The notes below the pieces were generated by a model. The model worked only from the letters and a program-made list of their open reading frames with translations, was not told the DNA's origin and ran no database searches. Source: an uncultured delta proteobacterium (GTDB taxonomy: Bacteria > Myxococcota_A > Polyangia > Fen-1088). Taken from it: 64,000 nucleotides of DNA. Below are positions 31,384 to 64,000 of the stretch, in pieces (position 1 is the stretch's first letter; every line of letters begins with the position of its first letter). The stretch lies in NCBI GenBank assembly GCA_963737265.1, contig CAVTRY010000023.1:192001-256000 (forward strand), in the 5' to 3' direction. Both the position numbers and the translations under genes were made by a program.

Positions 31384-31388
31384 GGTCT

Positions 31389-35946: not shown

Positions 35947-35956
35947 GGTCGTCCCT

Positions 35957-37033: not shown

Positions 37034-37199
37034 GTCTTCTTCTCCTTGTTGGTCTGACTGTCGAAAAGAAGTATGGGGTTTCAACCCATGCCGAAATCTT
37101 GCAGGACCATTACAGCGGTGAAGGGTTCGCGGGCGATCGGTTGGTCTCAGATCGCGCGTCAGGCGCGGCTCAGGCGGGTCGGAAGCGCCTTGCAGTCGC

Positions 37200-37660
37200 C
37201 CCACCCCTTCTACGGTTGCTTTTCGATCGCGTTCTTCACGCCAGCAGCCGTCGTGCTGACTGGGGCTCCTCTCGACATCGCGCCGCTGTCGCGTCCGGCG
37301 AAGGAGTAGACTAATCGCGCGCACCATCAAGGTTACCCCCGACCAGGCCATCACAATCGCTAGCGGTACAGCGACTACCCTCGGCCAAAGAACCGCGATG
37401 GTAGCTCCCGCAAGGAGGATGCCGGCGAAGATTGCCATCAGACTGCTTTGAACAAATCCGACTGACCGCTGCCGACTGACCACGCTCCCCACGGCGTGGG
37501 CAAACCGGACGGCGCCGATGGCTCGCCCCGATGCTCCACGGGACGCAGCCTTGGCCCGCTCTCCACGAAGAGGTGCGCTGGCTTCAGGAACCACGCGACG
37601 ATTGAGACCGATCACGCTCTCGGTGGCGTTCTCCAGGTCCGCGAGAAACATCTCCTCCAT
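37200..37660 (-). pseudogene. C-terminal fragment resembling a cardiolipin synthase/PLD family protein
   Basis: MEEMFLADLENATE...AVLWPRVVAVPL tail; no HKD motifs present; cut by an IS remnant. Confidence 0.55.
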
Positions 37661-45500: not shown

Positions 45501-46167
45501 GAAATTCAGCGTTTGGGGCGTGGTGGTCATGGTGCTCGAAAACCTTCTCGTCAAGGCCGCCACCTCGCCTTTCGCCCTCATCGGATCGCTGTTCGGGCAA
45601 GGCGAGGAACTGTCGTGGATCGAATTCGAACCTGGTCGCGCCGACGTCCCGCCGGCCGAGCGCACGAAGGTCGAAACCTTGGGCAAGGCATTGTTCGAAC
45701 GACCGGCGTTGCGACTCGAGGTGGAGGGCCACGCCGATCCGGCGCGTGACCTTGAAGCCCTTCGCTGGCTGGAATTGCAGCGCAAGGTGAAGGCGCAGAA
45801 GGTGAAGGAAACCGTCGCTGGCGGCAACGAGGCAAGCGCAAATATCGCCGTGAGCGAGGCCGAGTATCCCAAGTACCTGAAGCTGGCCTACCGCGCCGAC
45901 GAGAAGACCGTCAAACCCAAGAACGCGCTTGGCATGGTCAAGGACATCCCCACCAGCGAAATGGAACGCCTGATGTTGGCCGCCATCACGGTCAGCCAGG
46001 ACGATCTTCGCTTGCTGGCCCGCCAACGCGCCCAAGTCGCGCGCGAGCAAATCCTGCGGGCACGAAAGATCGAGACCGAGCGTGTGTTCCTGGTGGAACC
46101 CAAGACCATCCAGCCCGACCCCAAGAAAATGGTCAGCAACAGCCGCATCGACTTTCGCCTGCGGTAG
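42541..46167 (+). CDS. DUF748 repeat protein (AsmA-like)
   Basis: N-terminal TM; FNPYALS, YAGYAVEKG and LLKDR.G.I.LDLPVSGSLDDPKFS motifs; OmpA-like tail. Confidence 0.88.
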   Translation: MPIRSFLASHRYLRRLLLVSVVAGALFTVLGFLVIPALARSIGQRKLSEFLHRQVTIESLRFNPYALSATIRGLRIRDRDGARDLFTLKEAYVNLQLASLFKGGVVVKQVRVVEPTVSLVRVGEDRYNFSDILDDLAKMPPAPPPPADAKPARFSLSNLELTNGHIELDDRFKATHHTIANLNISVPFVSNFPYLVETFVQPAFSATINGTRLAIQGSTKPFSDSRESSINVNLVKVDLPHYLAYLPLKLKMKLRSAILDTSLKVTFIQYPDHAPRVDVAGGVALSALDIVDDKDRPLVKLPLLDIAINSSDLLFDRVALGHVLLQSLAVHVRRGAKGELQFQSLLATLAPSAPTPSGAKKTKDSSAPPWDITADEFKLDGAKIVFTDDSNARPFKTIVDPLTVTLRNFTTAPGGQAQLALSATTDAGLQLRVAGRLGAEPMSFEGSVDCKGVALASFAPYYASQILFDVRQGTLDCNIPLRLGRKGRAMELSVSGLRADVRDLQLRRRGDQEDFFRLPEFSLRETNLDLARREVVLGDIATAGARIRLERGSLTQLWNLETLLPVPPAPPRSVPAPLAASADLERKEAPFTVTVRKLDVKDWAVHVEDRAPRTAAITNLDRIGIRVDGLGTAHGQQGRVTVQARLNQTGSIHVAGSVGLTPLQADVQLKLKTIPIVPLQPYFQDSVALLLTSGHVGAIGRVVLTSGAKGPMVNYKGEFVVGDVVAVTPGSGEELARLGELHASGIDATTLPFKLNIAEIAIGDYGAQVVINPDKTINLASLVSSSSKGATKPAAPPEKQTTVPATKADEAPSPVVHVGAVVLRGGNIRMTDRSIHPAFNTTLGDLGGRIAGLSFEESERASVEIQGKLGNGPLEIAGRMNPLAKKPFIDLAVKVSDVDLSAMTPYAGKYAGYAVEKGQLYLDLKYLIEARRLEAKNDVKLSQFTFGQSIESKDATHLPVRLAVSLLKDRHGVIHLDLPVSGSLDDPKFSVWGVVVMVLENLLVKAATSPFALIGSLFGQGEELSWIEFEPGRADVPPAERTKVETLGKALFERPALRLEVEGHADPARDLEALRWLELQRKVKAQKVKETVAGGNEASANIAVSEAEYPKYLKLAYRADEKTVKPKNALGMVKDIPTSEMERLMLAAITVSQDDLRLLARQRAQVAREQILRARKIETERVFLVEPKTIQPDPKKMVSNSRIDFRLR

Positions 46168-46321
46168 GCTAACCCGGGCTGGCGGGTAGGCGACGAGATC
46201 GCTGTCCTGCTCTTCTCGAAAACTCGCTCCAGGGAGGGGCATCAGCTTCGGCCAGGATTGCCGGGTGGCCGGTCGGTGTGGCACCCTTGCGTCTTTCAGG
46301 TGCGACTACACGGAGGACAAG

Positions 46322-46645
46322 ATGAGCGAGATCATTCGCTTCGGCGTTTCGATGGATGAAGACCTGCTGGGGCGATTCGACCGGCTGTGCAAGCGGCGCA
46401 AGTATCAGAACCGATCGGAGGCACTCCGCGATCTGGTGCGCGACGCCCTGGTGCGCGAGCAATGGCAGGGCGACGAGGAGATCGTCGGCACGATCACGCT
46501 CATCTACGACCATCACACACGCGAGCTTTCCGACAATCTCACGCACATGCAACACGACCACTTTGACGCCATCCTCTCGAACCTCCATGTTCATCTGGAC
46601 CATAACAACTGTCTGGAGGTCATCGCTGTGCGTGGCAGTGCTTCC
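46322..46645 (+). pseudogene. nikR: Nickel-responsive regulator NikR, 3'-truncated
   Basis: RFGVSM, NRSEALRDL, YDHH and HVHLDHNNCLEVI motifs; the last ~30 residues are replaced by unrelated sequence. Confidence 0.85.
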
Positions 46646-46735
46646 TTGGAACGACAATGCGGACGGCGGAGCCAGCCTTCTGGCCGGCCCGCGAGCGCAT
46701 CCCCAGATCTCATGCCAGGCGGCGCGCATCCCCGG

Positions 46736-47134
46736 CTATCTCGACCTCTTCGTCGCGGTGACGAGGTACTGGTCGGCATCGTCGATGCTCGCCCGCACCT
46801 CGTAGCCAGCCGCCGTGAGCGTCGCAGCGGTCTCGGCAGCCGGAGGGAGAAGATCGGCGCAGATGGGATCCCCGGCGGCGGCGTGAATCTCATTGATCTT
46901 CTGACGCGAGATCAGGTGCCAGATGTGCAGGTGGCCACCCGGACGCAGCACTCGCGCCAATTCGCCGAGCGCGCCATCTCGGTCGCGCAGGTGGGGCCAG
47001 ACCGAGAAGCAGATGATCCGGTCGGCTGCGCTGTCAGCGAGTGGCAGAGCCTCGGCGCTTCCCACGTGCCACGTCACGCGTAAGTCTCGCACCTTGGCAC
47101 GGGCGACCTCGATCATGCGCGGCGAGATGTCCAC
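46736..47134 (-). pseudogene. Class I SAM methyltransferase, 5'-truncated
   Basis: DISPRMIEVAR, AEALPL and RVLRPGG motifs; motif I is missing next to the IS boundary. Confidence 0.75.
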
Positions 47135-49698: not shown

Positions 49699-49796
49699 CT
49701 AAAGCCGCACAAGACTTGCAACCTCGATGTTCCAGCACGAGCTTGTATCGTAGATGACCTCCAGCCCGTTCGCGTTGGCGAGACCGAAAGATATTG
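49699..49796 (-). repeat. Degenerate copy of the effector 3' end (stub 4)
   Basis: ISFGLANANGLEVIYDTSSCWNIEV immediately after the immunity-like stop codon. Confidence 0.85.
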
Positions 49797-51035
49797 TCAG
49801 TAGGCAATCAGCAGCCAGTCGCCTTCGCTGCTCTGGCCGATGGCGAAGCGGGGGCGTTTGAACTTCGTTCGCTGCAGTTGGAGAAGAATTTCTCTTATCT
49901 CTACCTTGTTTTCGGCAATGATGTTTCCGTGTTCCGTAACGCTCGAAAATTTCCTGCAGCTGTTGTCGTGAAAGAGCACTTGCGCTGCCCAAGTAGGAGC
50001 TACGACCTCGCCTCCAAAGTCTGCCAATTTGCGCTTCCAGACTGTCTCCAACCCACGATTTGTTCGGAAGAGAACCGTGTCATCTCTTTCATCGCTGATT
50101 TTCCAAAAGAGGAAATCACTGCCCCGAGAGGCGAACGGCAGACTTGTAGGTGCCCGTTCCGTTTCGTACCTGGTGCGGACCAACCCCCCCCATCGCGGTA
50201 TGCCAGTCGGATCTTGAGGGCTCTTGCCTTTGGACCAGAACCATTCCCGCTTCGTGTTCATCCACGAAAGCGCCTTTTGCACTACGACGGCTCCCCGTGT
50301 GTCGAGAACAGTTGCTGTCGACGGCCAGACCTCGTCGAACAGGCCAGGTACATTGCCATAGGGGTAGATCTCCTTGAAGGCCTCGATGAGGAGTAGATCC
50401 CCCGCTTCGGAGGCTATCGCTCCAGTCTGATCGAGCTGGAGCCCGCACGAACAGGGTTGTTTAGCGTCTCCTGCCGAATCGGGGCAGCGCGGTTTGTCGA
50501 TAGCGGCCAAGGGGCGCGACTTTTCCACCGACTCGCGGCCATCAAGATCGAAATAGGAAACGACCTTATCGCTCACCACCCACAGCCCGGTGGGACTTGA
50601 CCGATAGAGCGTAGTCTTCGTGGCCTGAACGACGAATGACCGAGCCCGGCCCTTGTGCAGAGTCCCGGTATCGATTTCGACGACCTCGCTGGCACTCGCT
50701 ACGACGAAGCGGTTGCCAAAGACCTGCCCGGTCTTGACCTCGCCGACGATGTCGAGAGGGCTTCGTCCCAGCTCGTGCCCCTCTCTGTCCCAAAGCATGA
50801 GAGCGAGGGCATCCGTTTCCAGGTTCTTCACAATGGCCAGGATCTTGCCCCCGGGCAAGGGATAGACCGGCGGTATGAACTCGCCTTGCACCTGCCAGCT
50901 TGCCTGCCATCCCGTGAGCTGCAGTCGTTGGCTCAGACCACGCACCGTCACTCGATTCTCTTCGGCGCGAACATTGCCCGTCATGATAAGTCCTGCAAAT
51001 ACGAGTCCAGCAAATACGAGGATCGCACATCGCAT
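49797..51035 (-). CDS. Putative immunity protein paralog 4 (signal peptide)
   Basis: Paralog of 58348-59565; ends RPRFAIGQSSEGDWLLIAY. The function is inferred from context. Confidence 0.7.
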   Translation of the reverse strand: MRCAILVFAGLVFAGLIMTGNVRAEENRVTVRGLSQRLQLTGWQASWQVQGEFIPPVYPLPGGKILAIVKNLETDALALMLWDREGHELGRSPLDIVGEVKTGQVFGNRFVVASASEVVEIDTGTLHKGRARSFVVQATKTTLYRSSPTGLWVVSDKVVSYFDLDGRESVEKSRPLAAIDKPRCPDSAGDAKQPCSCGLQLDQTGAIASEAGDLLLIEAFKEIYPYGNVPGLFDEVWPSTATVLDTRGAVVVQKALSWMNTKREWFWSKGKSPQDPTGIPRWGGLVRTRYETERAPTSLPFASRGSDFLFWKISDERDDTVLFRTNRGLETVWKRKLADFGGEVVAPTWAAQVLFHDNSCRKFSSVTEHGNIIAENKVEIREILLQLQRTKFKRPRFAIGQSSEGDWLLIAY

Positions 51036-51046
51036 GGCTACAGAGC

Positions 51047-51445
51047 CCTATCGGTAGGGGGCGAATTGGCGACGCCACGAAAAGTTCGGGGCTTCGTTAT
51101 CGTGGAGGAGACCATCTGTCGGCTCTCACGGTATATCTGAGTGCCTTCCCACTCGGATTCACCAGGGAGCGGCGCATCTCTCTCGCTCTGGCCCACCTAT
51201 TCGCCAACCCATAGGGGGCGCGCAGCGGCGGTCAAGGGCGCGCAGCGGCTCGCGAAGCGAGCGAACCCTTGACGGCTGCGAGCACCCCCGCACGATTGCC
51301 GAATGTGGGACGCGGGTGCCCGTCCGCCCTTGGGTGTCCGTGATAATCCACCCGGTGGATCACGAAATAGCGTGATATCCAACACCAGCATTCTCACCAT
51401 AAGTCGTAGATGTCCTCCAGCCCATTCGCGTTGGCGAAACCGGCA
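51047..51445 (-). repeat. Effector 3' stub 3, interrupted by a ~290 bp structured insert (51111-51400)
   Basis: GFANANGLEDIYDL | insert | LLHDNEAPNFSWRRQFAPYR*. Confidence 0.8.
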
Positions 51446-51729
51446 TCAATACGCGATCAGCAACCAATCTCCCTCGGCACTCTGACCGATGGCGAAACGG
51501 GGTCGCGCGCCTCGCGTGGCGTCCTGTTCTAGATAAATCTCTCGGATGGGCACGGTCGCCTCGACCTTGTGCCCCCCGCGATCAGAAATACTTGAGAACC
51601 GATAGCGGCTATCGTGAAGAAGAATTGACGATGTCCACGATGGCGAGATGAAGATCTGACCTGGGAAATCCCGTAGGCTGCGTTCCCACGAGATGCTGGA
51701 CGTCAACTACATTCACCCGGTGACGTCAA

Positions 51730-52578
51730 TTACATCGCCCCATTGTTGTCGGGGGTAGTTGTCGTTGGTTGATCGGTAGTTGTCGTAGTTGTCGCTGGGG
51801 TGGTGACGCCTCTCTTTCGTGCTTCTTCGCTGCGGTAGCTGGGGCCGGTCATCTCAAGGATGACCGCGTGGTGGACCAGTCGGTCGATGGCGGCGGCGGT
51901 GGTCATGGGATCCTTGAAAATGCGGATCCAATCGCTGAAGACCAGGTTGCTGGTGATGAGGACGCTCTTGCGTTCGTACCGCTCGGCCAGGAAGGTGAAA
52001 AGGACCTCCATTTCATCGCGGCTCTGCTGGACGTAGCCGATGTCGTCGAGGATCACGGCGTGATAGATGTCGAGCGCGGCCAGTTCTCGTTCCAGGCGAA
52101 GGTCGCGCTTGGCGGCCAGCAGCCTCTGGACAAGCGCGAAGGTCGGCGTGAAGAGGACCCGGTAGCCGCGCCGGATGAGTTCGTGGCCGATGGCAGCCAC
52201 AACGTGACTTTTGCCTCGGCCGGGCAGTCCGAAGACGAGCAGGTTCTCCCCACGTTCGACAAAGCCACCCTCACACAGGCTCGCCATCTGCTTCATCACC
52301 TTGGGTGACAGCCGACCACGTTCCAGGGTGGCCAGGGTTTTCTCCGTGGGAAGGTCCGAATCGCGAAGCGCGCGATCGATGCGACGGGTTCGGCGCTCTT
52401 CGATTTCCAGTTCGGCCAGGTGCTGGAGGTATTGGCTGAAGGTCCACCCCTCGCGGCTGGCCTTGATCGCGATCTCCTCGGCGTGCCGGGTGAAGGCAGG
52501 CAGCTTGAGCGCGCGCAGAAGCACCAGCAGAGCGTCGAGCGCGCTCGGCTTGACCGTGTCTACGGAGACGTTGGTCAT
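51730..52578 (-). CDS. istB: IS21 helper ATPase IstB
   Basis: GLPGRGKSH, ILDDIGY, ITSN and AAIDRLVHH motifs. Confidence 0.95.
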   Translation of the reverse strand: MTNVSVDTVKPSALDALLVLLRALKLPAFTRHAEEIAIKASREGWTFSQYLQHLAELEIEERRTRRIDRALRDSDLPTEKTLATLERGRLSPKVMKQMASLCEGGFVERGENLLVFGLPGRGKSHVVAAIGHELIRRGYRVLFTPTFALVQRLLAAKRDLRLERELAALDIYHAVILDDIGYVQQSRDEMEVLFTFLAERYERKSVLITSNLVFSDWIRIFKDPMTTAAAIDRLVHHAVILEMTGPSYRSEEARKRGVTTPATTTTTTDQPTTTTPDNNGAM

Positions 52579-54073
52579 GATGCCACCTGTTCGAGGAGCA
52601 GGTCGTAGGACGCGAGATCGACCAGCGGTGCTTCGAGCGCGGGGACGCTCGGTGGATAGGTACTGTCCGTCGCCTGTGTGCATCTCTTCTTGGTTGCATC
52701 CGCCGTCAAGATGGTCCCATCGGCAAGCAGAGTCGTGAGCGCTTGCTCAACATCGGCTTCCATCGTGCTGGCGGCCAGGTGAAGAATGCGCAGGTATTCA
52801 ACGTCGCCTTTGATTCCAGGCTTGGTCGCCTGGATCGCGTCGTATGCCCGCCTGAAAGTCACGCTTGGAAACAGCTCTTCTCGGTAGACGTAGCGAGAAA
52901 ACGCGCCCGGCTTGCGCACCAAAGACCAGATGACGTGCCGGTAGTCGATGCGCGCGGTCTTGCCTCGCAGCCTGTCGCAGGCCAATTCCAAGTTGTCGGC
53001 GTAGTACACCTCGATTCGGTGCTCGAACACGCGGACTCTCACCCGTGCGCCGATCAGCCTCGACGGCACCGAGTAGGCGCACGACTTGACCCGGATGGTG
53101 CTCGTCGACGCCACAGGTGCCGTCATTTCTGCGTACTCCGGCAAACGCTCCACCACCAGCGGCCGCATGGCTTCGATCTCCTCGGCGACGCGCGGGCCTC
53201 GCGAAGCGTTGGCTTTGCGGACCACCTTGGCTACGAAGCGTTCGTAGTCGTCTTGGTCCGCGAAGTCGCGGCTGCCACGCACCAGCAGCGCTTGTTCAAG
53301 CCGACGCTTGAGCGCGCCGTTGCTGGCCTCCACATCGCCGTTTTGTTCCTTGGCCCCGACGGCTGTAGTTCGTGGCTCCATTCCGAGGTGCCGCATGACC
53401 GCCTTGTATTCATCGTTGAAAGTGCGATCTTCCGCATCGCGAGCGATCTGATGTGTCGCCGCCGTCGAGTGGTCGGTTTGGTGGTATCGCGGCACCCGCC
53501 CAAGCTGGAACAGCGCCGACTGGATCCCTCGCCGAAGCGCTGCCAGAGACTCCGACAGACACGCGGTCGCCCATTGCCAGTTCGAGTACGGCAGCACCGT
53601 CACGCACAAAAGGTGCACAAATAGCTGGCCCACGATCGTCACACCAAGCTCCGCCGTCGACGTGAAGTCGGTTTGCGCGGCTTCACCGGGCCGATGCGCC
53701 TGCGTGAACCAAATCTCACGCGCAGGACCATGCTCGGCCCGCCAGCGACGGATTCGCCGCTGCATTGTCCGAAGATGGCTCTCGTTGTACCGCCCTGGCT
53801 GCTTCGCCTCCAGCAGCTCCAGCACCGTCTGAGCCTCCAGCCCAGGCGTTTCCTCCAGCAACTTGGCCACGGCTGGCCAGTCCTCGGCGAACGCGTCAGG
53901 CGCGTCCGCCACCACCGCGGCTGCCGTAGCTCCGACGGTAGCTTGCCCGCGGCGATGTATCGCCGCCCTGTCTTCCGGTCCATGCCCGCCTTCATGGCGG
54001 CCTGGCCTACTTTTCCAATCTTGCTCATCTCTTCCATCAAACGCCTCACTTGGGCGTCGGTGACCGGCTTCAA
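52575..54073 (-). CDS. istA: IS21 transposase IstA (apparent 1-bp deletion ~53898)
   Basis: AGGAGG + TTG start; HTH (AGMDRKT.RRY); WRTR/PDAF split; QTDFT, TDH, NGDVE and YSVPSRLIG motifs. Confidence 0.9.
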
Positions 54074-55161
54074 AGGTGCCTCCTGCCCGCTTGCGGGCTT
54101 GGAGGTCTACCTCACGGTCACCGTCGCGCCTCAAAGCGGGGCGACGTAGCTGTCGTCTTTGGGGAGATGTAATTGTCGCTCAGCAACGAGAGGTCGAATC
54201 TGCGATCTCTACGCTGCAAAACCGTCTCTCGCGATCCCGAGATGAACAGGAAGTCGGTGCCGCGAGAAACGAAGAAACGGCCTGCTCCGATTCCGTCGGT
54301 CACATATCGGGTTCGCACCAGTCCCCCGCGGCCGATGCCAATCGGATTCTGAGAGCCAGTGCTCTCACTCCAGAACCATTCCCACTTGGTCTTCATCCAG
54401 GAATAGGGTCTTTGTACGATGATGTGTCCCTGGTAATCTAGAACTGTCACGACTGAAGGCCAAACCTTGTCGGTTGCACTGGTGCTGATAGGATATCTCT
54501 CCAAGTAGACATCGAGAATCAACACCTCGCCGGCATCGGATACCAGCATCTCCGCTTCGTTCGGTTGGAAGCCTGCCGAGCAAGGAGCTTTGATGCTCGT
54601 GAAGTCACTTGGACATGCAGGTTTGTCCGAAACTGACACCAACGGCCGAGTCTTTGTCACGGGGGCGCCGCCGTCCAAGTCGAAGTAGGAAAGCGCTCGA
54701 TCGCTGACTGCCCAAAGGCCGGTGGGTCCGGCGAAGTATGTGGTCTTCTCGGAGGGAACAGGGAACTTTCGCGTCCGGCCAGGGCTCAGGCTGTCGGTGC
54801 CGTACTCCGCGACCTCACCCGCCGACGCGATGACCACGCGCTTGTCGAAAACGCGAGAGGCCACTATGCCACCTGCGAGAGCCAAGGAAGATTGGGCCAG
54901 TTCTTGGCCTTCCTTGCTCCACAAGACAAGATCTCTCGGCTCCTTCTCAGGCGACTTGACGACGGCGAGAATCTTGCCGCCTGGAAGCGTATGGAGAGGT
55001 GGAAAGACCTCACCCCCGGCCATCCATGAGGTCTGCCAGCCGCTGAGCTGTAACCGTTGGTTCAGTCCGCGGACTGTCACGCGGTCTCCTTCTGCGCGAG
55101 CGTTTCCGGTCATCATCAATCCTGCCAAGGTGAGAAGGAAGCATTTCATCGCACCACGATC

Positions 55162-55377
55162 CTACTTGTAGGCGACAAATTGACGGCGCCAGGTGAAGTT
55201 GGGGGCTTCATTGTGGGTGTGGAGGAGTCCGGCGTTCTCGCCGTGGGGAATGATGTCGTACTTCTGCGGACCCCAAAAGTTCCCGAACGATGGCTTGGCC
55301 TCGACCTCGATGTTCCAGCGCGAGCTGACGTCGTAGATGTCCTCCAGCCCGTTCGAGTTGGTGAAGCCGAAGGACAT
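55162..55377 (-). CDS. Intact 71-aa copy of the effector C-terminus (stub 2)
   Basis: ATG 2 nt after the immunity-like stop; MSFGFTNSNGLEDIYD...NEAPNFTWRRQFVAYK*. Confidence 0.7.
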   Translation of the reverse strand: MSFGFTNSNGLEDIYDVSSRWNIEVEAKPSFGNFWGPQKYDIIPHGENAGLLHTHNEAPNFTWRRQFVAYK

Positions 55378-55379
55378 CG

Positions 55380-56591
55380 TCAATAAGCAATCAGCAGCCA
55401 GTCGCCTTCGGCGCTTTGGCCGATGGCGAAACGGGGGCGCTCGTAGTGAGTCTTTTGCTGCTCCTCCGCGATCCCATCGATACTGATCAGCTGCTCCCTT
55501 TTGCTTCGGCCTTGGTCTGATATGGTCGAAAATCTGTAGCATCCATGGTCGTGTAAGAGCATGGGTGAAACCCAGGATGGAGAGCTGATGAACCCGCCGG
55601 CAAGATCTCGAATGCTTTGTTTCCAAACCGGTTTAAGTAGTCGGTTCCAGCGGTGAATGACCATTTCGTCTCTGCCAGACCAGTAGAGGAAGTCGCTACC
55701 ACGGGAGGCAAAGAGACGGCCAGCGGCGATGCTATCGGTAACATATCGGGTTCGCACCAGCCCCCAGTCTGCAGGGCCTCCGGATTGTGGGCTACCTCCT
55801 TGGGTCCAGAACCATTCCCGCTTGGTCTTCATCCATGAGTAAGGCTTCTGCACCGCGATGTTCCCACGCGAATCGAGAACGGTCACGGCTGAAGGCCAAA
55901 CCTGGTCTGGGAGCACCCCAGTCGTACTGATTGGATATCTCTCTAAGTAGACATCGATGATGAGCATCTCTCCGGTGTCGGATACCAGCATCTCCGCTTC
56001 GTTCGGCTGGAAGCCTGCCGAGCACGGCTCTTTTATGCTCGAAGGGTCACTGGAACACGCAGGCTTGTCCGAAACCGACACCAATGGCCGAGTCCTTGTC
56101 ATGGAGGCGCCGCCGTCCAAGTCAAAGTAAGAAAGCGCTCGATCAGTGACCACCCAAAGGCCGGTAGGTCCGGCGGCATATACGGTCTTCTCGGAGGAAA
56201 CGGGCAACTTTCGCGTCCGGTCGGGGCGCAGTTTGTCGATGTCGTACTCCACGACCTCACCTGCCGACGCGATGATAAGGCGCTTATCGAAAACGCGAGA
56301 AGCCACTACGTCACCTGCAAGCGCCAAGGGAGTTCGTGCCAGTTCGCGGCCTTCCTTGCTCCACAGGACGAGATCCTTCGGGTCCGTCTCTGGTGCGTTG
56401 ACGACGGCGAGAATCTTGCCACCTGGAAGCGTATGGATGGGGGGAAGAATTGCGCCTTTGGCCAACCATGAGGCATGCCAGCCAGTGAGCTGCAAGCGTT
56501 GGTTCAGTCCGCGGACTGTCACGCGGGCCCATTCAGCGTGGGCGTCTTCGACCATCATCAATCCTACCAAAATGAAAAGGATGTATCTCAT
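55380..56591 (-). CDS. Putative immunity protein paralog 2 (signal peptide)
   Basis: RVTVRGLNQRLQL...EGDWLLIAY; GGGGAG RBS. Confidence 0.75.
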   Translation of the reverse strand: MRYILFILVGLMMVEDAHAEWARVTVRGLNQRLQLTGWHASWLAKGAILPPIHTLPGGKILAVVNAPETDPKDLVLWSKEGRELARTPLALAGDVVASRVFDKRLIIASAGEVVEYDIDKLRPDRTRKLPVSSEKTVYAAGPTGLWVVTDRALSYFDLDGGASMTRTRPLVSVSDKPACSSDPSSIKEPCSAGFQPNEAEMLVSDTGEMLIIDVYLERYPISTTGVLPDQVWPSAVTVLDSRGNIAVQKPYSWMKTKREWFWTQGGSPQSGGPADWGLVRTRYVTDSIAAGRLFASRGSDFLYWSGRDEMVIHRWNRLLKPVWKQSIRDLAGGFISSPSWVSPMLLHDHGCYRFSTISDQGRSKREQLISIDGIAEEQQKTHYERPRFAIGQSAEGDWLLIAY

Positions 56592-56603
56592 CTCCCCGCG
56601 ATC

Positions 56604-58136
56604 CTACTTGTAGGCGGGGAATTGACGACGCCAGGTGAAGTTGGGCGCCTCATTATGGAAGTGAAGTAATCCGGTATTCTCGCCGTGAGGAATGATCTCG
56701 TACTCCTGCGAACCCCAAAAGTTCCCAAGCGAGGGCTTGGCTTCGACCTCGATGTTCCAGCACGAGCGTGTATCGTAGATATCGTCGAGCCCTCCCGCAC
56801 TTCCGAAGCAGAAAGACATGAATCTGCCGGCCTTGGAGCCGAATTGAAGCCACGCCATGAACTCTTTGGCGTCAGTCTTAAGAATATCAAACGAGCTTTC
56901 CGCAGGCGCGAATTTGTCGGGGGCAAGTTGATGTCTAGCCCTGAATTTCTGTGGATCGCGAGTGAGCGGAATCTTGACCCAAGGGTTCTCATTCTTGACC
57001 GTTGCCTTTCCAAAGAGGACCACGTCCATGTTCATGGCCAGCATGTCTGGGAAGGTCTCTTGGAAGGTGATCTTGATGGCGTGCGGAACCTCTTCAGCGT
57101 TCGCTCGCTCAAAGGGCTCGACGTTGATCGCCTTGAACACTCCGTCTTTCATCACGTGTAGGTAGTCCACCGCGACGGCCAGCCTGGGCTTGGTTTTGTT
57201 GAGCGTGGGGTACACGGGCTCGATGCTGGTCACATCGCCGGTGTCCGAGATGGTCACCATCGTGCCCGAGGGGCGGTCGCTGCCATATTCGCCGAACATG
57301 GCGCCACCGCCATAGAACCCGTCGAAGTTGATGCGCGGGAGCGGACCCGCGGAATCCGACACGATGATAGGTGGGCGGCCATTGATACGAGGCGCTGGAT
57401 TGACGACCCCGCTCGGACTCCGCATGCCGTAGGCCTCGGTTGGGTAGCCTTTGTCGTCAGCCGCTCCAAGCAGGTACATACTCTTGCGGTGCGAGTGGCC
57501 GGAAAACCCGCATGCCGTGACTTTGCCGTCGGCCATCTGCTTGTACAGTTCGGATCGCCGCTTTTCGAAGGTGCCGAAGTCGTATTTGCCAAAGGGGGCT
57601 CCGCCGCGAAGGAGCCCAGTGCCACCGACATCCACGTGGCCTAGGGTCGGACCCTCGCCATAGGAAACGGTCTCGACGTAGCTCACGAAGGTGAAGTGGC
57701 TCATGATCACGGTCTTCTTGCCCCCGGCGCCCGCATCGGGCTGGGCAAGCGCGAGCTGCGCTGCGGTGACCGCCTCGTTGGCGCGCGGAAGATGTCCCAA
57801 TAGACCGCCCTGGCCGAGCGAGCCAGGTAGGCTCACCGATTCTTCGCTTTCGCCCCAGCCCAACCCGACGAGAAGAATCTTGGGTAGCTGCACTTTGAAA
57901 TCCGAGAAGGGCGACAGGACTGCGTGGAACCACTCGTAGTATTGCGGATCGAAGAGTTCCCCCAGCGAGCCCAGGACCACCGCGCGCAGGGTGAGCTGGG
58001 GCGCGTCTTCGCCGCGAAACGCGCGCCGGTACCACGTTTCCTCGTCGAACGTGGCAACTTCCGCAGGTTGGATTTCAAGGGGACGGCCGGCGGCGATTTC
58101 CTCGGGCGTGTGCGCCGGTTTTTGGAACCAGGACAT
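56604..58136 (-). CDS. Chimeric ORF: OPT-transporter-like N-terminus fused to the C-terminal half of the metallophosphoesterase
   Basis: The first ~57 aa end in PQLTLRAVVLGS; the remainder aligns to 59580-60901. Confidence 0.7.
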   Translation of the reverse strand: MSWFQKPAHTPEEIAAGRPLEIQPAEVATFDEETWYRRAFRGEDAPQLTLRAVVLGSLGELFDPQYYEWFHAVLSPFSDFKVQLPKILLVGLGWGESEESVSLPGSLGQGGLLGHLPRANEAVTAAQLALAQPDAGAGGKKTVIMSHFTFVSYVETVSYGEGPTLGHVDVGGTGLLRGGAPFGKYDFGTFEKRRSELYKQMADGKVTACGFSGHSHRKSMYLLGAADDKGYPTEAYGMRSPSGVVNPAPRINGRPPIIVSDSAGPLPRINFDGFYGGGAMFGEYGSDRPSGTMVTISDTGDVTSIEPVYPTLNKTKPRLAVAVDYLHVMKDGVFKAINVEPFERANAEEVPHAIKITFQETFPDMLAMNMDVVLFGKATVKNENPWVKIPLTRDPQKFRARHQLAPDKFAPAESSFDILKTDAKEFMAWLQFGSKAGRFMSFCFGSAGGLDDIYDTRSCWNIEVEAKPSLGNFWGSQEYEIIPHGENTGLLHFHNEAPNFTWRRQFPAYK

Positions 58137-58240
58137 GCGGCTAGGTTAATCGATACTCGGGCGCGGGCGAGAGACTTCGGCCCGGCGCACCGCGCCGTCG
58201 CCGCGCTTGGCGTGGGATTACGGATGTCGGGGGTGGGGGC

Positions 58241-58345
58241 TCAGAAATTCCCAAAGGATGGCCTGGCCTCGACCTCGATGTTCCACCGCGAGCCGAGGTC
58301 GTAGACATCTTCGAGGCCGTTCGCGTTGGCGAAGCTGAATGACAT
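58241..58345 (-). repeat. Truncated effector 3' stub 1
   Basis: MSFSFANANGLEDVYDLGSRWNIEVEARPSFGNF* (TGG changed to TGA). Confidence 0.85.
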
Positions 58346-58347
58346 CG

Positions 58348-59565
58348 TCAATAAGCAATCAGCAGCCAGTCGCCCTCGGTGCTTTGGCCGATGGCGAAGC
58401 GGGGGCGCTGGAACTTCGTCCGCTGTAGTTCGAGAAGGATTTCTCTTATTTCTAGCTTGCTCTCGGTGATAATGGTCCCGTGCCCCGTAACACTCGAAAA
58501 TTTCCGGCAGCCGTTATCGTGAAGCAACACTTGCGATGTCCAAGAGGGAGATACAATCTCGCCTCCAAAGTCCGCCAATTTGCGCTTCCAGACTGTCTCC
58601 AACCCACGATTTGTTCGGAAGAGAACCGTGTCATCTCTTTCATCGCTGATTTTCCAAAAGAGGAAATCACTGCCCCGAGAGGCGAACGGCAGGCTTGCAG
58701 GTGCCCGTTCCGTTTCATACCTGGTGCGGACCAACCCCCAATCCGCAGGGCCTCCAGATTGCGGGCTACCACCCAGGGTCCAGAACCATTCTCGCTTGTT
58801 CTTCATCCACGAAAGCGCCTTTTGCACGACGATTGCGCCCGTGGCGTCGAGAACGGACGCCGCGGATGGCCAGACCTCGTCGAATAAGCCCGGTACGTTG
58901 CCGTAGGGGTAGATCTCCTTGAAGACCTCGACGAGGAGTAGATCTCCTGTTTCCGAAGCTATTGCTCTGGTCTGACCGAACTGGAGCCCGGTCGAACACG
59001 GTTGTTTGGCTTCCCCCGACGAATCAGGGCAGCGCGGTTTGTCGACAGCAACCAGGGGCCGCGCCTTCTCCACGGGCTGGTGGCCGTCGAGAGCGAAATA
59101 GGAAACCGCTTTGTCGCTGATCACCCACAGCCCGGTGGGGCTAGGCCGATAGAGTGTCGTCTTCGTAGCTTGAACGACGAACGAGCGCACTCGGCCCTTG
59201 CGCAAGGTCCCGGTATCGATTTCGACGACCTCGCTGGCGCTCGCGACGACCAAGCGGTTTCCAAAGACCTGCCCGGCCTTGACCTCGCCCGCGATGTCGA
59301 GAGGACATCGGCCCAGCTGATGCCCATCTTTGTCCCAAAGGAGGAGAGCGAGTGCATCACCTCCTACCTCCCTCACGATGGCCAAGAGCTTGCCCCCGGG
59401 CAGGGGATAGACCGGCGGTACAATTTCGCCTTGAACTTGCCAGCTTGCCTGCGATCTCGTGAGCTGCAGTTGCGGGCTCAGGCCGCGCACCGTCACTCGA
59501 TTCTCTTCGGCACGCACATTGCCCGTCATGATGAGTCCTGCAAGTACGAGGGTTGCATATCGCAT
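58348..59565 (-). CDS. Putative immunity protein paralog 1 (signal peptide)
   Basis: Directly follows the 876-aa phosphoesterase; MRYATLVLAGLIMTGNVRA signal peptide. Confidence 0.75.
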   Translation of the reverse strand: MRYATLVLAGLIMTGNVRAEENRVTVRGLSPQLQLTRSQASWQVQGEIVPPVYPLPGGKLLAIVREVGGDALALLLWDKDGHQLGRCPLDIAGEVKAGQVFGNRLVVASASEVVEIDTGTLRKGRVRSFVVQATKTTLYRPSPTGLWVISDKAVSYFALDGHQPVEKARPLVAVDKPRCPDSSGEAKQPCSTGLQFGQTRAIASETGDLLLVEVFKEIYPYGNVPGLFDEVWPSAASVLDATGAIVVQKALSWMKNKREWFWTLGGSPQSGGPADWGLVRTRYETERAPASLPFASRGSDFLFWKISDERDDTVLFRTNRGLETVWKRKLADFGGEIVSPSWTSQVLLHDNGCRKFSSVTGHGTIITESKLEIREILLELQRTKFQRPRFAIGQSTEGDWLLIAY

Positions 59566-59579
59566 GGCTGCGCGGTTTC

Positions 59580-62210
59580 CTATCGATAGGGCTCGAACTG
59601 GCGGCGCCACGAGAAGTTTGGGGCTTCATTGTGGGTGCGGAGGAGTCCGGTGTTCTCGCCGTGGGGTATGATGTCGTATTTTTGCAAGCCCCAGAAATTC
59701 CCAAACGAGGGTTTGGCCTCGACCTCGATGTTCCACCGCGAGCCGAGGTCGTAGATGTCCTCCAGCCCGTTCGCGTTGGTGAAGCCGAAGGACATGAAAC
59801 GTCCAGCCTTGGAGCCCAAGGTAAGCCAATCGAAGAAATCCTGACTTTGGAGCAATGGAATGGTGAAGATCGAAGTCGGTGGTAGTTTGGGGTTCTTTGG
59901 CTGGCGCTCAAGCGCAATCCTGATCCACCCATGAGCGAGTGAAGGCTTTCCGAAAAGGGCAATGTCCATTCCGTCAACAAGTTGGGGAGGAAAATGTTGG
60001 TGAAAGGTGAGGTTTATGGTGTGCTGGCACGTCGTCGCCTGCGCCCGTTCGAAAGGTTCGACGGCAATCTCCTTGAACACCTGGTCTTTCATCACGTGCA
60101 GGTAGTCCACCGCGACGGCCAGCCTGGGCTTGGTTTTGTCGAGCGTGGGGTACACGGGCTCGATGCTGGTCACATCGCCGGTGTCCGAGATGGTCACCAT
60201 CGTGCCCGAGGGGCGGTCGCTGCCATATTCGCCGAACGTGGCGCCACCGCCATAGAACCCGTCGAAGTTGATGCGCGGGAGCGGACCCGCGGAATCCGAC
60301 ACGATGATAGGTGGGCGGCCATTGATACGAGGCGCTGGATTGACGACCCCGCTCGGACTCCGCATGCCGTAGGCCTCGGTTGGGTAGCCTTTGTCGTCAG
60401 CCGCTCCGAGCAGGTACATACTCTTGCGGTGCGAGTGGCCGGAAAACCCGCATGACGTGATTTTGCTGTCGGCCATCTGCTTGTACAGTTCGGATCGCCG
60501 CTTTTCGAAGGTGCCGAAGTCGTATTTGCCAAAGGGGGCTCCGCCGCGAAGGAGCCCAGTGCCACCGACATCCACGTGGCCTAGGGTCGGACCCTCGCCA
60601 TAGGAAACGGTCTCGACGTAGCTCACGAAGGTGAAGTGGCTCATGAGTACGGTCTTCTTGCCCGCGGTTGCATCGGGCTTGGCTAGCGCGAGCTGCGCAG
60701 CGGTGACCGCCTCGTTGGCGCGCGGAAGGTGTCCCAACAGACCACCCTGGCCGAGCGACCCCGGCAAGCTCACTGATTCTTCGCTTTCGCCCCAGCCCAA
60801 CCCGACGAGAAGAATCTTGGGCAGCTGCAGGTTGAAATCCGAGAAGGGGGTCAGGACGGCATAGAACCACTCGTAGTATTGCGGATCGAAGAGCTCCCCC
60901 AAGGCAACGCTGTCCCAAGATTCGCCGAAGGCCAGCATGGCCTCGTAAAAGGTCAGGTTGTGGTCGGCCGGGATGCCTTCGTTGGCCTTCTTCAAACCCA
61001 GAAGAAGCCTTGGCGAGATGCCGTAGATGTGGTTCTTCTTGTAGCAATCGTGGTTTCCCGTCACCGCGAACGCCGGTTTGCCTTTGCTCGCGCAGAAGTT
61101 CCGGATCGCCGTGAAGAAGGCGATGTAGTCGACGTAGGATTGGTAGTTGCGTTTGTAGTTGTTGTCGACGTCGACCAGATCCCAGATGGCGGCGGCGCTT
61201 GGAGAGCGCAGCTTTTCCGCGCCGACGCCGTTGTGATAGGGGAAGGCATTGTCGACGTGCTCGATAAGGTCGCCGCCGACGAGCAGCACGTCGATGCCCT
61301 TGTTGTCGAGGGCATCGAGGATCGACAGAAATGAACGCTCGAAGGTGTTCATCATCGAGCCGATAACTGGCGATTCCGCGGTTCCGGATTCGGCATCGAT
61401 CACGCGGGCGGGGCTTTTGGCCAAGAGCTTCTGCCGGGCGTTGATGTGGATATCGGTGACATGCCCGAGGTTGAGCATCTGCAAGGATCCTGCCGCGTAC
61501 ACATAGAGCGGGTGATAGGCCACGATGCGCTGGTCGAGGTCGACCCGCGAGTAATCCACACCCTCGCCGTCGAGCTCGAATTCGTGCGTGCCGAAGCCGC
61601 CGCTGCCTTGCAGGGCCGGGCCGTTCAGGCGCTTAAAAACCTTGCGTATCTGGAGGTCCTGATATTCGGAATTCCCTGAACCGTCGTCCGCGCCAGGGCT
61701 GCCCGCTCCCTGCGAAGCTGCCGCCAGGCAAGACTCGTGTACCTGGATGGCGTAGAAACCGTCCAGCTCCTTGGGCAGCCAGTTGGAAACCGTGTCGTGC
61801 AGGACGCCACGAAAGATCCCCTTGGTCTTGAGCTGGCCGACTGCATCGCGCTCCACCGGCTCGACCGCGATCTTGCCCGTGGGATCGTCGAACAAATCGT
61901 CGTCCGTCACGCGTTTCTTGGCATCGAGGCCGGGCGCGAATTTGAGGTGGCGGTTTACGTCGTCGATGGCGAGGGCGGGCGACTTGGGCGCGGCCACCAG
62001 GAGCTCGATCATGCCCTTGTTCTCGCCGCGCACGTGCAGGTTGGGCGTCAGCAGCGAGGGAAACAGCACCACTGCCGGAATGTTCGGTCGCGTGTCGATG
62101 GTGTTGAGGTGCTCGGGGGCGACCTGGAATTTGCCCTGCGACGGATCGGGTCGCGACACGAACGAGAAGGCTCGCCACACCAGGTTGTAGATATCGGGTT
62201 TACTGGCCAT
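59580..62210 (-). CDS. Large calcineurin-like metallophosphoesterase, putative secreted effector
   Basis: All five motifs are present: TDIH, GGDL, GNHD, SH, GHSH. No signal peptide; followed by the paralog array. Confidence 0.8.
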   Translation of the reverse strand: MASKPDIYNLVWRAFSFVSRPDPSQGKFQVAPEHLNTIDTRPNIPAVVLFPSLLTPNLHVRGENKGMIELLVAAPKSPALAIDDVNRHLKFAPGLDAKKRVTDDDLFDDPTGKIAVEPVERDAVGQLKTKGIFRGVLHDTVSNWLPKELDGFYAIQVHESCLAAASQGAGSPGADDGSGNSEYQDLQIRKVFKRLNGPALQGSGGFGTHEFELDGEGVDYSRVDLDQRIVAYHPLYVYAAGSLQMLNLGHVTDIHINARQKLLAKSPARVIDAESGTAESPVIGSMMNTFERSFLSILDALDNKGIDVLLVGGDLIEHVDNAFPYHNGVGAEKLRSPSAAAIWDLVDVDNNYKRNYQSYVDYIAFFTAIRNFCASKGKPAFAVTGNHDCYKKNHIYGISPRLLLGLKKANEGIPADHNLTFYEAMLAFGESWDSVALGELFDPQYYEWFYAVLTPFSDFNLQLPKILLVGLGWGESEESVSLPGSLGQGGLLGHLPRANEAVTAAQLALAKPDATAGKKTVLMSHFTFVSYVETVSYGEGPTLGHVDVGGTGLLRGGAPFGKYDFGTFEKRRSELYKQMADSKITSCGFSGHSHRKSMYLLGAADDKGYPTEAYGMRSPSGVVNPAPRINGRPPIIVSDSAGPLPRINFDGFYGGGATFGEYGSDRPSGTMVTISDTGDVTSIEPVYPTLDKTKPRLAVAVDYLHVMKDQVFKEIAVEPFERAQATTCQHTINLTFHQHFPPQLVDGMDIALFGKPSLAHGWIRIALERQPKNPKLPPTSIFTIPLLQSQDFFDWLTLGSKAGRFMSFGFTNANGLEDIYDLGSRWNIEVEAKPSFGNFWGLQKYDIIPHGENTGLLRTHNEAPNFSWRRQFEPYR

Positions 62211-62219
62211 GTGTTTTTC

Positions 62220-63326
62220 CTAGCGGGTGGGGAAGCGGGCGCCCGGGCCATAGCTTAGCCCATCGGCTCGCACGACAAGGTCAGGGGCATAAGAAACTCG
62301 TTCCAGCACCAGGCCCTGCACGCGCGCTTCTTGCAACCCCAGGACCGTGGTTAGTTGGGTGTCGCGGATGGCGAGGCCGTCCACCGAGCTTCGGCCGAGG
62401 TCGAGGCCGGCCAGGCACGAACGCTCGATGCTGTTGTTATCCGCGATGGTACAGCCCTGCCAAAAGGCGCCGTCGATGAAGCTGTCGCTGACCATGAGAT
62501 TGTCGATGTTGGCGTGGCCAAAGGAAACCAGGCCCAGGGTCGGACAGCGGTCGATGGCGAGGCCCGCGACCTTGCCGCCCGCCACCGCGACACCGACCAA
62601 TTCGCCGCAACCGAGCAGACTTAGGCCCGTGCTGCTCACCTCGGTCAGGCGCAAGGCGCGTCCGTGAATTTGGTCGAAGGTGAGGGCGACCCATGTCCCG
62701 AGCACGAAATCCAGACCGTCGACCAGAGCACTTTGCACCAGCATTCCCCGCCCCCGTGCCGCGGTGAATGTCACGCCCGCAAGGGTTCCCCCGACCACGG
62801 CCACATCCTCGATCTGGGCGTGGTCGAAGCGCGTACCGCGTAGCTCCGGCGTCAGGAGTCGCAGGTTGCCAAACTGCGAGCGCAAGAAACTGCCACCGCG
62901 GTCTACGAGCGACTGGAATTCGGCGCGCTCGAACAGCGAATCCTTCCAGGTACAGCCTTGCAAGTTGAGCTCTGCCGCGCTGGAGTCCACGATGCGGACG
63001 CGGCCCATCTGACAAAAGTCGAATCCGCAGCGCTCCAGGCGCGAGCGTTCGAAACCCACGTCGTCGAAGGTACAGGCGGTGAACGTCACCTCGTGCAGCG
63101 CCGCCCGCGCAAATGCGGTTGCCGACAGCCTGGTGTTGTGGAAGTCGACCCCGGCAAAGCGCACGCCGTGGAACCCCTGGTCCCGGATTTCTAGACCCTG
63201 GACGCTGCGGTCCTGAAAGACGATCGGCCCCTTCTTGCTGGCTTCGGCCAAGAAGACCGGGTCGATTAGCAGCCGCTGCTCTTCGTCGGTGAGGGGTGGT
63301 CGGGCGGAGGGATTGGGGGGCGCCAT
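62220..63326 (-). CDS. Pentapeptide repeat protein
   Basis: Regular 5-residue F/L periodicity (FAGVDFHNTRLSATAF...). Confidence 0.85.
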   Translation of the reverse strand: MAPPNPSARPPLTDEEQRLLIDPVFLAEASKKGPIVFQDRSVQGLEIRDQGFHGVRFAGVDFHNTRLSATAFARAALHEVTFTACTFDDVGFERSRLERCGFDFCQMGRVRIVDSSAAELNLQGCTWKDSLFERAEFQSLVDRGGSFLRSQFGNLRLLTPELRGTRFDHAQIEDVAVVGGTLAGVTFTAARGRGMLVQSALVDGLDFVLGTWVALTFDQIHGRALRLTEVSSTGLSLLGCGELVGVAVAGGKVAGLAIDRCPTLGLVSFGHANIDNLMVSDSFIDGAFWQGCTIADNNSIERSCLAGLDLGRSSVDGLAIRDTQLTTVLGLQEARVQGLVLERVSYAPDLVVRADGLSYGPGARFPTR

Positions 63327-63359
63327 GGGTTCTCCTGCGGGCGGTTCGGCCGTGCCGGG

Positions 63360-64000
63360 TTACCTGCCGTGGGCCGCGTGGAGTGCGGCGAGGAAGTCGT
63401 CATCGACCACGTCTTGGTCATCCAGCAGCTTGACCCAGCGGAAATGCGCGATGGCGGTGTGGGTGGCATCGTCGGCGTTTCCGTCGATCGGGCCCGTGTA
63501 GAAGCCGAGGTTCTGCAGGCGGGCTTGGATTCCCGAGGTGGTGTCGGACGGATCCAGTCCGCCCACGGCGAAATCGTAGGCAGCAAAGGGCTGGTCGGCG
63601 GCGCTCCCCGCGCGCGAGAGCTCGACGTGGACCTTGCTGGTATCGGGTGGCAAGTCGATTTCCAGTTTTCCGGTCGAAGGTAGCGTGCCCTCCACGGCGC
63701 CACCGGTGTCAGGGGTTGCCTTGAAGGTGACCGGGTTCTCCTCGCTGCACTTGACTCCGGCGAAGCGCACGCGCAGCACCTCGGCCGCGCCCTGCACGAC
63801 GTATTCAGCCGCGCCACCCGGGACCTCCGCCTCGCGCGCGAGCTTGCTCGGGATGGCGACCTTGTCGCCCGGCAAGAGGATGTGGGCGGTTCCGCGCAAC
63901 TTGCGCAGGTCTTCGTTCTTCGCAAAATCCCAAATGGTCTGCCAACGAATGAAGCCATGCGCCCGAGCGATCGTGGGCAACCGGTCGCCTTGCTCGACCG
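63360..64000 (-). CDS. LysM-like + peptidoglycan-binding domain protein (5'-truncated by window edge)
   Basis: IA..HGF..WQTIW....N...ILLPGD.V.IP and GIQARLQNLGFYTGPIDG motifs. Confidence 0.8.
   Translation of the reverse strand, partial: VEQGDRLPTIARAHGFIRWQTIWDFAKNEDLRKLRGTAHILLPGDKVAIPSKLAREAEVPGGAAEYVVQGAAEVLRVRFAGVKCSEENPVTFKATPDTGGAVEGTLPSTGKLEIDLPPDTSKVHVELSRAGSAADQPFAAYDFAVGGLDPSDTTSGIQARLQNLGFYTGPIDGNADDATHTAIAHFRWVKLLDDQDVVDDDFLAALHAAHGR

Follow-up and report, generated by a model that had tools for sequence, protein, structure and literature searches.

We examined positions 49,699 to 64,000 of a 64,000-nucleotide stretch of DNA from an uncultured delta proteobacterium of the Myxococcota, referred to here as the window (G000:C23:192001-256000, on contig C23 of the genome). 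Coordinates are window positions unless a contig or locus is named. A prediction made from the sequence alone (the original prediction) had placed a polymorphic toxin system here, with a giant metallophosphoesterase (MPE) as the effector and a tandem array of exported immunity-like paralogs. All of the genes it described were found, and open reading frame (ORF) calls and translations put every gene of the locus on the minus strand. In the direction of transcription, a peptidoglycan-binding gene is followed by a pentapeptide-repeat gene, the MPE gene, and an array of predicted β-propeller paralogs and effector gene pieces. The window holds the 3' two-fifths of the peptidoglycan-binding gene (63360-64000, continuing to the equivalent of window position 64955), which was recognized from its translation and a Pfam PG_binding_1 match. 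The pentapeptide gene (62220-63326) encodes 368 residues with a Pfam Pentapeptide_4 match. The MPE gene (59580-62210) encodes 876 residues and was identified by the Pfam family Metallophos, an alignment of its motifs, and a structural model.

The units of the array were mapped by tblastn, with E-values of 0 to 1e-5 for the copies within the window, well outside what chance would give; the paralogs (except the 3' part of the third) and the orphan effector half were also called as ORFs. Exported β-propeller paralog 1 (58348-59565; 405 residues from the ATG), for which a model was also built, starts 14 nucleotides downstream of the stop codon of the 876-residue effector, and directly 3' of its own stop codon lies an effector remnant corresponding to residues 806-839 (58244-58345). 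Next come an orphan C-terminal half of the effector in a 510-residue ORF (56604-58136), exported paralog 2 (55380-56591; 403 residues), and a 71-residue effector remnant (55165-55377; residues 806-876, 86% identical). Paralog 3 is divided by an IS21-family element into a truncated 5' part (54193-55149), whose ORF reads on to 54118, and a 3' part (51449-51688) that extends from approximately residue 323/341 to the end. A 33-residue remnant (51051-51146; residues 844-876), exported paralog 4 (49797-51035; 412 residues, 79% identical to paralog 1), and a terminal remnant (49720-49794; residues 806-830) complete the array.

The original prediction described four repeats of an effector 3' part and a paralog ending in RPRFAIGQSxEGDWLLIAY. 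There are four paralogs, each behind a 3' piece of the MPE gene, and all of them have this ending. The regularity of the units did not hold up, as one paralog is split by the IS21 element and the effector pieces are unequal, ranging from the whole gene through the 510-residue ORF to 71 and 33 residues, with two extra remnants (58244-58345 and 49720-49794) besides the unit pieces. The 510-residue ORF is also partly foreign. Its residues 57-510 correspond to effector residues 436-876 with 79% identity by tblastn, and motifs I-III of the MPE are absent. The 56 residues at its start are unrelated to the effector, with 192 nucleotides that are 87% identical to C19:35163-35354. An identical junction sequence is found 3' of each paralog stop codon, running into the effector from residue 802-806 or so onward. 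Because the same junction lies behind every paralog, the array is a true tandem repeat, and its sequence indicates that it was born by repeated duplication or recombination of one unit consisting of the effector 3' end and a paralog.

The IS21-family element (51724-54178; 2455 bp) was recognized from Pfam matches and 19-nucleotide inverted repeats at 51724-51742 and 54160-54178, and it carries istA (52575-54134) and istB (51730-52683). The genome contains 19 full-length copies of it with at least 99.7% identity, plus interrupted and partial ones. Given so many nearly identical copies, the insertion into paralog 3 is recent, and from its copy number the element looks to be actively expanding in the genome. 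Contigs from one soil metatranscriptome run (X1) contain sequence related to parts of the locus; they resemble it at 90-99% and are no demonstration that the window locus is transcribed. One of them joins 56715 to 58242, with 166 nucleotides on the shorter side, and represents a form without the body of the 510-residue orphan, which is the product expected from recombination between two copies of the segment encoding residues 806-839. A weaker one, with only 25 nucleotides on one side, joins 51720 to 54161 and represents a form without the insertion element.

The only Pfam family identified in the 876-residue protein was Metallophos (E 8e-6; 26.9 bits against a cut-off of 21.5). The original prediction had noted all five calcineurin-like motifs and the lack of a signal peptide. 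The motifs defining PF00149 (DxH, GD, GNH[DE], H, and GHxH) are all present, and Asp 253, His 255, Gly 313-Asp 314, Gly 385-Asn 386-His 387-Asp 388, His 525, and Gly 591-His 592-x-His 594 are invariant in 24 aligned homologues. No hydrophobic signal was seen by eye at the N-terminus. An AlphaFold model built on the alignment of 24 homologues had a predicted local distance difference test score (pLDDT) of 82 and a predicted template modeling score of 0.89. It contains β-rich N-terminal domains (residues 1 to about 240), a catalytic core with insertions (residues 244-692) that has the β-α-β-α-β sandwich characteristic of PF00149, and a C-terminal domain that includes a hypervariable stretch (residues 721-805). 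The best structural match to the core was the phosphodiesterase Rv0805 (Z 19.4, root-mean-square deviation 3.5, 246 residues aligned), followed by GpdQ (Z 18.6), purple acid phosphatase and Lmo2642 (both Z 17.1), Mre11 (Z 16.5), and LpxH (Z 9.1). Foldseek returned the same families. These matches point to a binuclear MPE of the phosphodiesterase type with catalytically intact motifs, and they name no particular substrate. The original prediction had proposed a phospholipid or lipid carrier as a possible substrate; the fold search that it suggested gave a generic phosphodiesterase-type MPE, and no substrate-specific match was found among the folds searched. On the evidence of the model, the protein is predicted to be an active binuclear phosphodiesterase-type enzyme. 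A sequence-profile search of the PDB with the MPE found no MPE, only a chance hit to geminin (E 0.47), and NCBIfam has no family for either the MPE or the propeller.

Each of the downstream paralogs begins with a Sec-type signal peptide and an AxA-like cleavage site, as judged by eye. In the AlphaFold model of the paralog (pLDDT 86), residues 1-19 are disordered and the remainder is all-β. The model matches seven-bladed propellers including BamB, clathrin, and Sec12, the last being the best (Z 14.8); the structural comparison yielded only such generic propellers and no specific relative. The paralogs are therefore predicted to be periplasmic seven-bladed β-propellers. Their cysteines are conserved. 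The family is small, with 42 proteins, all at least 44% identical, in a collection of 5.8 billion clusters and 70 representatives among 1.84 billion, and neither Pfam nor NCBIfam has an entry for it. Paralog 1 is presumed to be the cognate immunity protein of the 876-residue effector, and paralog 2 that of the orphan effector half. The same propeller fragment (residues 14-115, with identical scores) also occurs at C12:251289-251594, C18:289013-289318, and C13:262090-262395. The C12 fragment adjoins a gene for a 389-residue transposase-like protein, as if carried by a mobile element. The third-position guanine-plus-cytosine fraction is much lower in the propeller genes (0.64-0.66) than in the effector and upstream genes (0.79-0.83).

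The genome has three full MPE loci: that of the window, C12:254621-257284, and C11:1334863-1337544. Residues 1-180 are 100% identical among all three paralogs, so that a single set of accessory proteins might suffice for all of them. Residues 436-700 are 94-96% identical among the window effector, the 510-residue orphan, and the C12 effector and 53% identical to the C11 effector. Identity is 35-60% in the hypervariable stretch (residues 721-805), with 42-60% among the three full paralogs, and 48-87% in residues 806-876. Within the variable stretch, the closest pair is formed by the orphan and the C12 effector (60%), whose propellers are 71% identical to each other; paralog 1 is approximately 52% identical to both of these propellers. 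Ten effector-propeller pairs were compared, four from the host genome and six from metagenomes, with two contigs that each held two candidate paralogs excluded. Identity in the variable stretch tracks propeller identity across these pairs (Mantel r 0.87, p 2e-4; partial r 0.80 given the effector core), six of the ten pairs having been joined solely by the equal lengths of their contigs.

The locus accordingly has both the conserved N-terminus with a variable C-terminal part and the co-varying downstream gene, here 14 nucleotides away, by which a polymorphic toxin is recognized. The distribution of the effector is patchy: 2 of the 12 genomes examined from other species in the genus have it, and none of the 18 genomes searched from other genera does. 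The combination of a conserved delivery end, a hypervariable stretch, a co-varying exported neighbor, orphan pieces, and patchiness is characteristic of effector-immunity systems. It agrees with the original prediction, which had proposed a polymorphic toxin locus from a family that it did not recognize. An additional MPE fragment lies downstream of the C11 effector-paralog pair (L080, C11:1333079-1333594). It covers residues 264-435, is 97% identical to the window effector, and has one internal stop codon, making it an orphan piece from the 5' half of the gene rather than the 3' half. A metagenome protein of 538 residues, P0039, combines MPE residues 182-473 (78% identical) with a dCMP/MafB19-like deaminase domain, the breakpoint being near the same region as in the orphan effector halves. 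We rejected it as an example of toxin-domain swapping, since the MPE part ends inside the catalytic domain and the protein looks chimeric.

Homologues of the MPE are widespread. Among the candidates scored, 189 proteins matched at E ≤ 0.001, and 63 distinct related loci were found in species-representative genomes from many phyla, including Pseudomonadota, Ignavibacteriota, Latescibacterota, and Myxococcota. Some members are fused to LysM, BACON, OmpA, or PG_binding_1 domains. For neighbor counts, ORFs were called in all 63 loci and searched with home-built hidden Markov models seeded from Pfam-verified members. This recount replaced BLAST clustering, which had merged VgrG with OmpA/peptidoglycan-binding proteins; the PAAR model, built from two seed sequences, also matched OmpA/peptidoglycan-binding proteins, and PAAR was excluded from the counts. 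VgrG occurs in 18 of the 63 loci, Eag/DUF1795 in eight, TssB/TssC/Hcp in four, and ClpV in five. Secretion-system linkage in homologues was the test set in advance by the original prediction, and 22 of the 63 loci carry VgrG, Eag, or core genes of a type VI secretion system (T6SS).

In four loci (L018, L019, L021, and L060) the MPE module lies inside a T6SS core cluster. The MPE and pentapeptide genes of L018 (Latescibacterota) and L021 (Ignavibacteriales) are located between PAAR/Eag and ClpV-TssB-TssC-Hcp-VgrG-TssE. The gammaproteobacterial locus L025 has the order VgrG-Eag-PAAR-x-x-x-MPE-pentapeptide-PAP2, the myxococcal loci L056 and L026 have VgrG-VgrG-PG_binding-(pentapeptide)-MPE, and L039 similarly has VgrG-(PG_binding)-MPE. 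The PAP2-family membrane phosphatase gene that follows the MPE-pentapeptide pair in L025 (L025:12705-13616) could be a hint that lipid phosphates are involved in the chemistry, or a coincidence. In the host genome, a T6SS-i cluster lies at C11:975-1004 kb, where TssC, Hcp, TssF, and VgrGs score above the Pfam cut-offs. It has another T6SS effector locus at C21:330038-338104 (L078), where VgrG is followed by a TPR protein and an Rhs protein of 1334 residues with a DUF6782-like C-terminus.

The pentapeptide protein is a conserved companion of the MPE family, being beside the MPE in 47 of the 63 loci. The partner in the window (Pentapeptide_4, E 9e-16) has no signal peptide. Approximately 30 of the 46 full-length partners appear by eye to be exported, with a signal peptide and often a lipobox, and the other 16 do not; a crude signal-peptide script flagged 26 of the 46 and overlooked those of L019, L020, L044, and L062, although visual inspection suggests that these are exported too. 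Most partners are acidic (median isoelectric point 5.4). The original prediction associated the pentapeptide gene with T6SS vgrG/DUF2169 loci. The gene is not of the DUF2169/TagAB kind, as Pfam found only pentapeptide families and no DUF2169 domain in the 368-residue protein or in the partners from other loci; the protein is instead a family-specific partner. In the C12 and C11 loci the partner has been cut to an identical in-frame 56-residue remnant and the peptidoglycan-binding gene is internally deleted, and the effector and propeller are intact despite the loss.

Several other loci have tandem arrays of the partner: L069 (three copies, 72-81% identical), L067 (two), L062 (two), L053, and L042. 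The distant locus L053 has orphan MPE halves interspersed with copies of the exported partner. Compared with the full gene of that locus, these halves show 100% identity from about residue 372 to 735 in its own numbering and only 15-58% from about 736 to 810. This divergent region is the same hypervariable stretch as in the window effector.

A FastTree phylogeny was computed from 50 rows, which were the three paralogs of the host genome and the 47 loci whose MPE ORF reaches 700 residues or more; 16 loci were left out, and the tree was rooted at the midpoint for drawing only. With this root, exported pentapeptide partners fill the basal clades and cytoplasmic partners accompanied by a peptidoglycan-binding gene fill a derived clade of 18 rows. 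The propeller is confined to a subclade of eight rows that includes the host genome. Among the 63 loci it was found only in the four closest, all from Myxococcota; in each case it lies downstream of the MPE, with a tandem pair in L013. Because the partner is exported and arrayed in most other lineages, the exported pentapeptide protein was probably the older immunity protein, whose role the propeller took over in this lineage. This view has loose ends in the unequal pentapeptide genes of L053 and in the Enhygromyxa and acidobacterial loci, both described below, and in the unsettled root of the tree.

The complete peptidoglycan-binding protein has 531 residues in the genome, no signal peptide, and a C-terminal PG_binding_1 domain (Pfam E 3.1e-5). 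The original prediction described it as a LysM/PG-binding protein, and the peptidoglycan-binding assignment is supported by Pfam; the LysM-like stretch was seen by eye only, and the Pfam LysM model did not score. A LysM-like/PG_binding_1 partner of approximately 215-250 residues occurs in 21 of the 63 related loci, and the 531-residue protein is likely to be a co-secreted cell-wall anchor or loading factor. Its N-terminal domain of approximately 235 residues had no Pfam match and no usable hit in the ESM Atlas. The same domain is encoded at C11:1339078-1341411, C12:265851-268184, C11:200391-201281, and C22:91588-92502, joined to LysM-like/PG_binding_1 domains, to OmpA plus PG_binding_1 (777 residues, in two identical copies), or to tails of approximately 60 residues. 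One copy adjoins an Imm71/Imm72-like gene, and the domain may mark further effector loci.

Sequence beyond position 64000, where the original prediction had proposed to look for vgrG, PAAR, or DUF2169, contains none of these and has an RND efflux operon and unrelated genes instead. The other flank has a housekeeping character, with a Bat/MoxR-vWA operon, a giant AsmA/DUF748 protein, and a NikR-like regulator at 29524-37660 and 42541-47083.

Taken together, the window probably encodes a T6SS-delivered phosphodiesterase cargo effector of an undescribed family with an array of β-propeller immunity proteins. We infer that the effector would be secreted, toxic, active in the periplasm, and bound by its immunity protein, as follows. 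The MPE would be made in the cytoplasm, having no signal peptide, and loaded on a VgrG/PAAR spike through the N-terminal region that is identical in all three genome paralogs, probably with the help of the cytoplasmic pentapeptide protein, the LysM-like/PG_binding_1 protein, or both. It would then be fired into the periplasm of a neighboring cell, where it would cleave a phosphodiester or pyrophosphate bond in some component of the envelope. Sister cells would be guarded by the exported seven-bladed propeller, which would bind the variable stretch (residues 721-805) adjoining the catalytic core. The downstream array would store further immunity alleles together with effector 3' pieces, and the conserved effector pieces and conserved immunity-gene 3' ends could act as homology arms for recombination, allowing effector and immunity alleles to be swapped.

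A broader version of this scheme, which we offer tentatively and regard as rather doubtful, would extend it to more than ten phyla. The T6SS phosphodiesterase would strike an envelope intermediate with a phosphodiester or pyrophosphate linkage, for example lipid II/undecaprenyl-PP-linked precursors or phospholipid head groups, and the ancestral immunity protein would be an exported pentapeptide-repeat lipoprotein, whose fold is not known among immunity proteins. One clade of Myxococcota would have switched to the propeller, its pentapeptide protein losing the signal peptide and becoming a cytoplasmic loading factor for several effector paralogs.

Several observations fit poorly with a T6SS cargo effector guarded by propellers. 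No T6SS marker was found in 41 of the 63 related loci, although many of these are short contigs. There is no vgrG, PAAR, or adaptor gene within approximately 20 kb of the window locus, and its nearest relatives, L013 and L015, likewise have none alongside. Mre11 scores almost as well as the phosphodiesterases in the structural comparison, and the fold names no substrate. The co-variation depends in part on the length-matched metagenome pairs, and with a contamination estimate of 7.6% for the genome, some of the "paralogs" could be alleles of co-assembled strains. In L053, two orphan effector halves with identical variable regions precede pentapeptide genes that are only 39% identical, a poor fit with strict one-to-one pairing. 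In Enhygromyxa and in the acidobacterial loci the partner is cytoplasmic and the propeller is missing; lineages such as Enhygromyxa are thus left with no obvious periplasmic immunity protein.

The pentapeptide protein could be the immunity protein in this locus also, with the propellers serving as an accessory periplasmic factor or as immunity to something else. We consider this unlikely here, even though the adjacency of the partner in 47 of the 63 related loci, the export of most partners (about 30/46 by eye, 26/46 by script), the tandem partner arrays in L069, L067, L062, L053, and L042, and the alternation with orphan effector halves in L053 all speak for it. In the window, the partner has no signal peptide, and in two of the three genome paralog loci it persists only as the 56-residue remnant beside an intact effector and propeller. 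Every effector piece is followed by a propeller and not by the partner, and it is the propeller whose sequence varies in step with the variable stretch. In the phylogeny, propellers are limited to the clade in which the partner has lost its signal peptide.

Two other explanations dispense with a periplasmic toxin altogether. The MPE, pentapeptide, and peptidoglycan-binding genes could constitute a T6SS accessory module that remodels or anchors the envelope, the propellers being unrelated periplasmic paralogs. The location of the module within T6SS core clusters of L018, L019, L021, and L060 and its conservation across many phyla would suit such a role, and peptidoglycan-binding accessory proteins such as TagL and TagN are known from a review (PMC13584744). 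This seems quite improbable, given that the three diverged paralogs of the genome are far from its T6SS cluster, that a hypervariable stretch with a co-varying gene, orphan halves, remnants, and patchiness are hallmarks of conflict systems, and that cargo effectors are typically encoded next to Eag, PAAR, and VgrG. Alternatively, the MPE could act on nucleic acids or nucleotides in the target cytoplasm, like Mre11/SbcD or a cyclic-nucleotide phosphodiesterase, with the acidic pentapeptide β-helix as a DNA-mimicking inhibitor. The structural scores of Mre11 and SbcD (Z 14-16.5) and Rv0805 (Z 19.4), the acidity of most partners (median isoelectric point 5.4), the 16 of 46 partners that are cytoplasmic, and the presence in L018, L021, and L025 of PAAR proteins and their Eag chaperones immediately upstream could all be explained in this way. 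Most partners and all propellers are exported, however, and PG_binding_1, LysM, or OmpA domains beside or fused to the MPE indicate the periplasm, so we give a cytoplasmic target little credence.

No described family matching the locus was found in Pfam, NCBIfam, PDB sequence searches, or the literature, including the match to a known effector family that the original prediction named as grounds for abandoning it. The MPE appears to belong to a widespread, undescribed toxin family. T6SS cargo effectors with periplasmic immunity proteins are known, as in the Tle lipases with their Tli proteins. Like these, the window effector lacks a signal peptide and has an exported immunity-like gene directly downstream, and its homologues occur beside VgrG, PAAR, and Eag. 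It differs in being a calcineurin-like MPE, Pfam having found Metallophos only and no lipase, PLD family, or Tle1-like domain. Its immunity candidates also differ, being a β-propeller or an exported pentapeptide β-helix, and there is no adjacent vgrG.

Orphan toxin-immunity arrays occur in Rhs, CdiA, and Vibrio T6SS loci, and the tandem immunity genes of the window are similarly each placed behind an effector 3' fragment, with conserved flanks that could serve as recombination arms. In those systems a separate toxin domain is exchanged, whereas here the swapped module would be the C-terminal half of one enzyme (from approximately residue 372-436), with divergence concentrated in a stretch of about 85 residues. 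The abstract of a preprint (bioRxiv 10.64898/2026.07.13.738213) reports an Rhs cluster with poly-immunity. The class III phosphodiesterase-type MPEs Rv0805 (3ib7) and GpdQ (2dxl) share the binuclear core and motifs of the window MPE and are only 14-16% identical to it; the window protein is three times larger, with approximately 200 residues of insertions and additional N- and C-terminal domains. The TagAB and DUF2169-pentapeptide T6SS accessory proteins of Burkholderia (PMC13584744, PMC7714669) are likewise pentapeptide-repeat proteins encoded in T6SS or vgrG neighborhoods, but the window-family partner has no DUF2169 and most of its members are exported and lipoprotein-like. MPE-domain proteins have also been proposed as T6SS effectors in Neisseria, where metallophosphatase-domain proteins encoded downstream of VgrG were predicted in silico to have this function (PMC12046857). 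The relevant passage of that report does not define a family, name an immunity protein, or present an experiment.

If our interpretation is correct, metallophosphodiesterases would be a new enzymatic class among the antibacterial effectors of the T6SS, and the exported pentapeptide β-helix and the β-propeller would be two new immunity folds. The family would also show how, in nature, one immunity protein can be replaced by another and how alleles can be swapped by recombination inside an enzyme domain. The substrate of the effector could reveal a vulnerable step of the Gram-negative envelope that has not yet been exploited.

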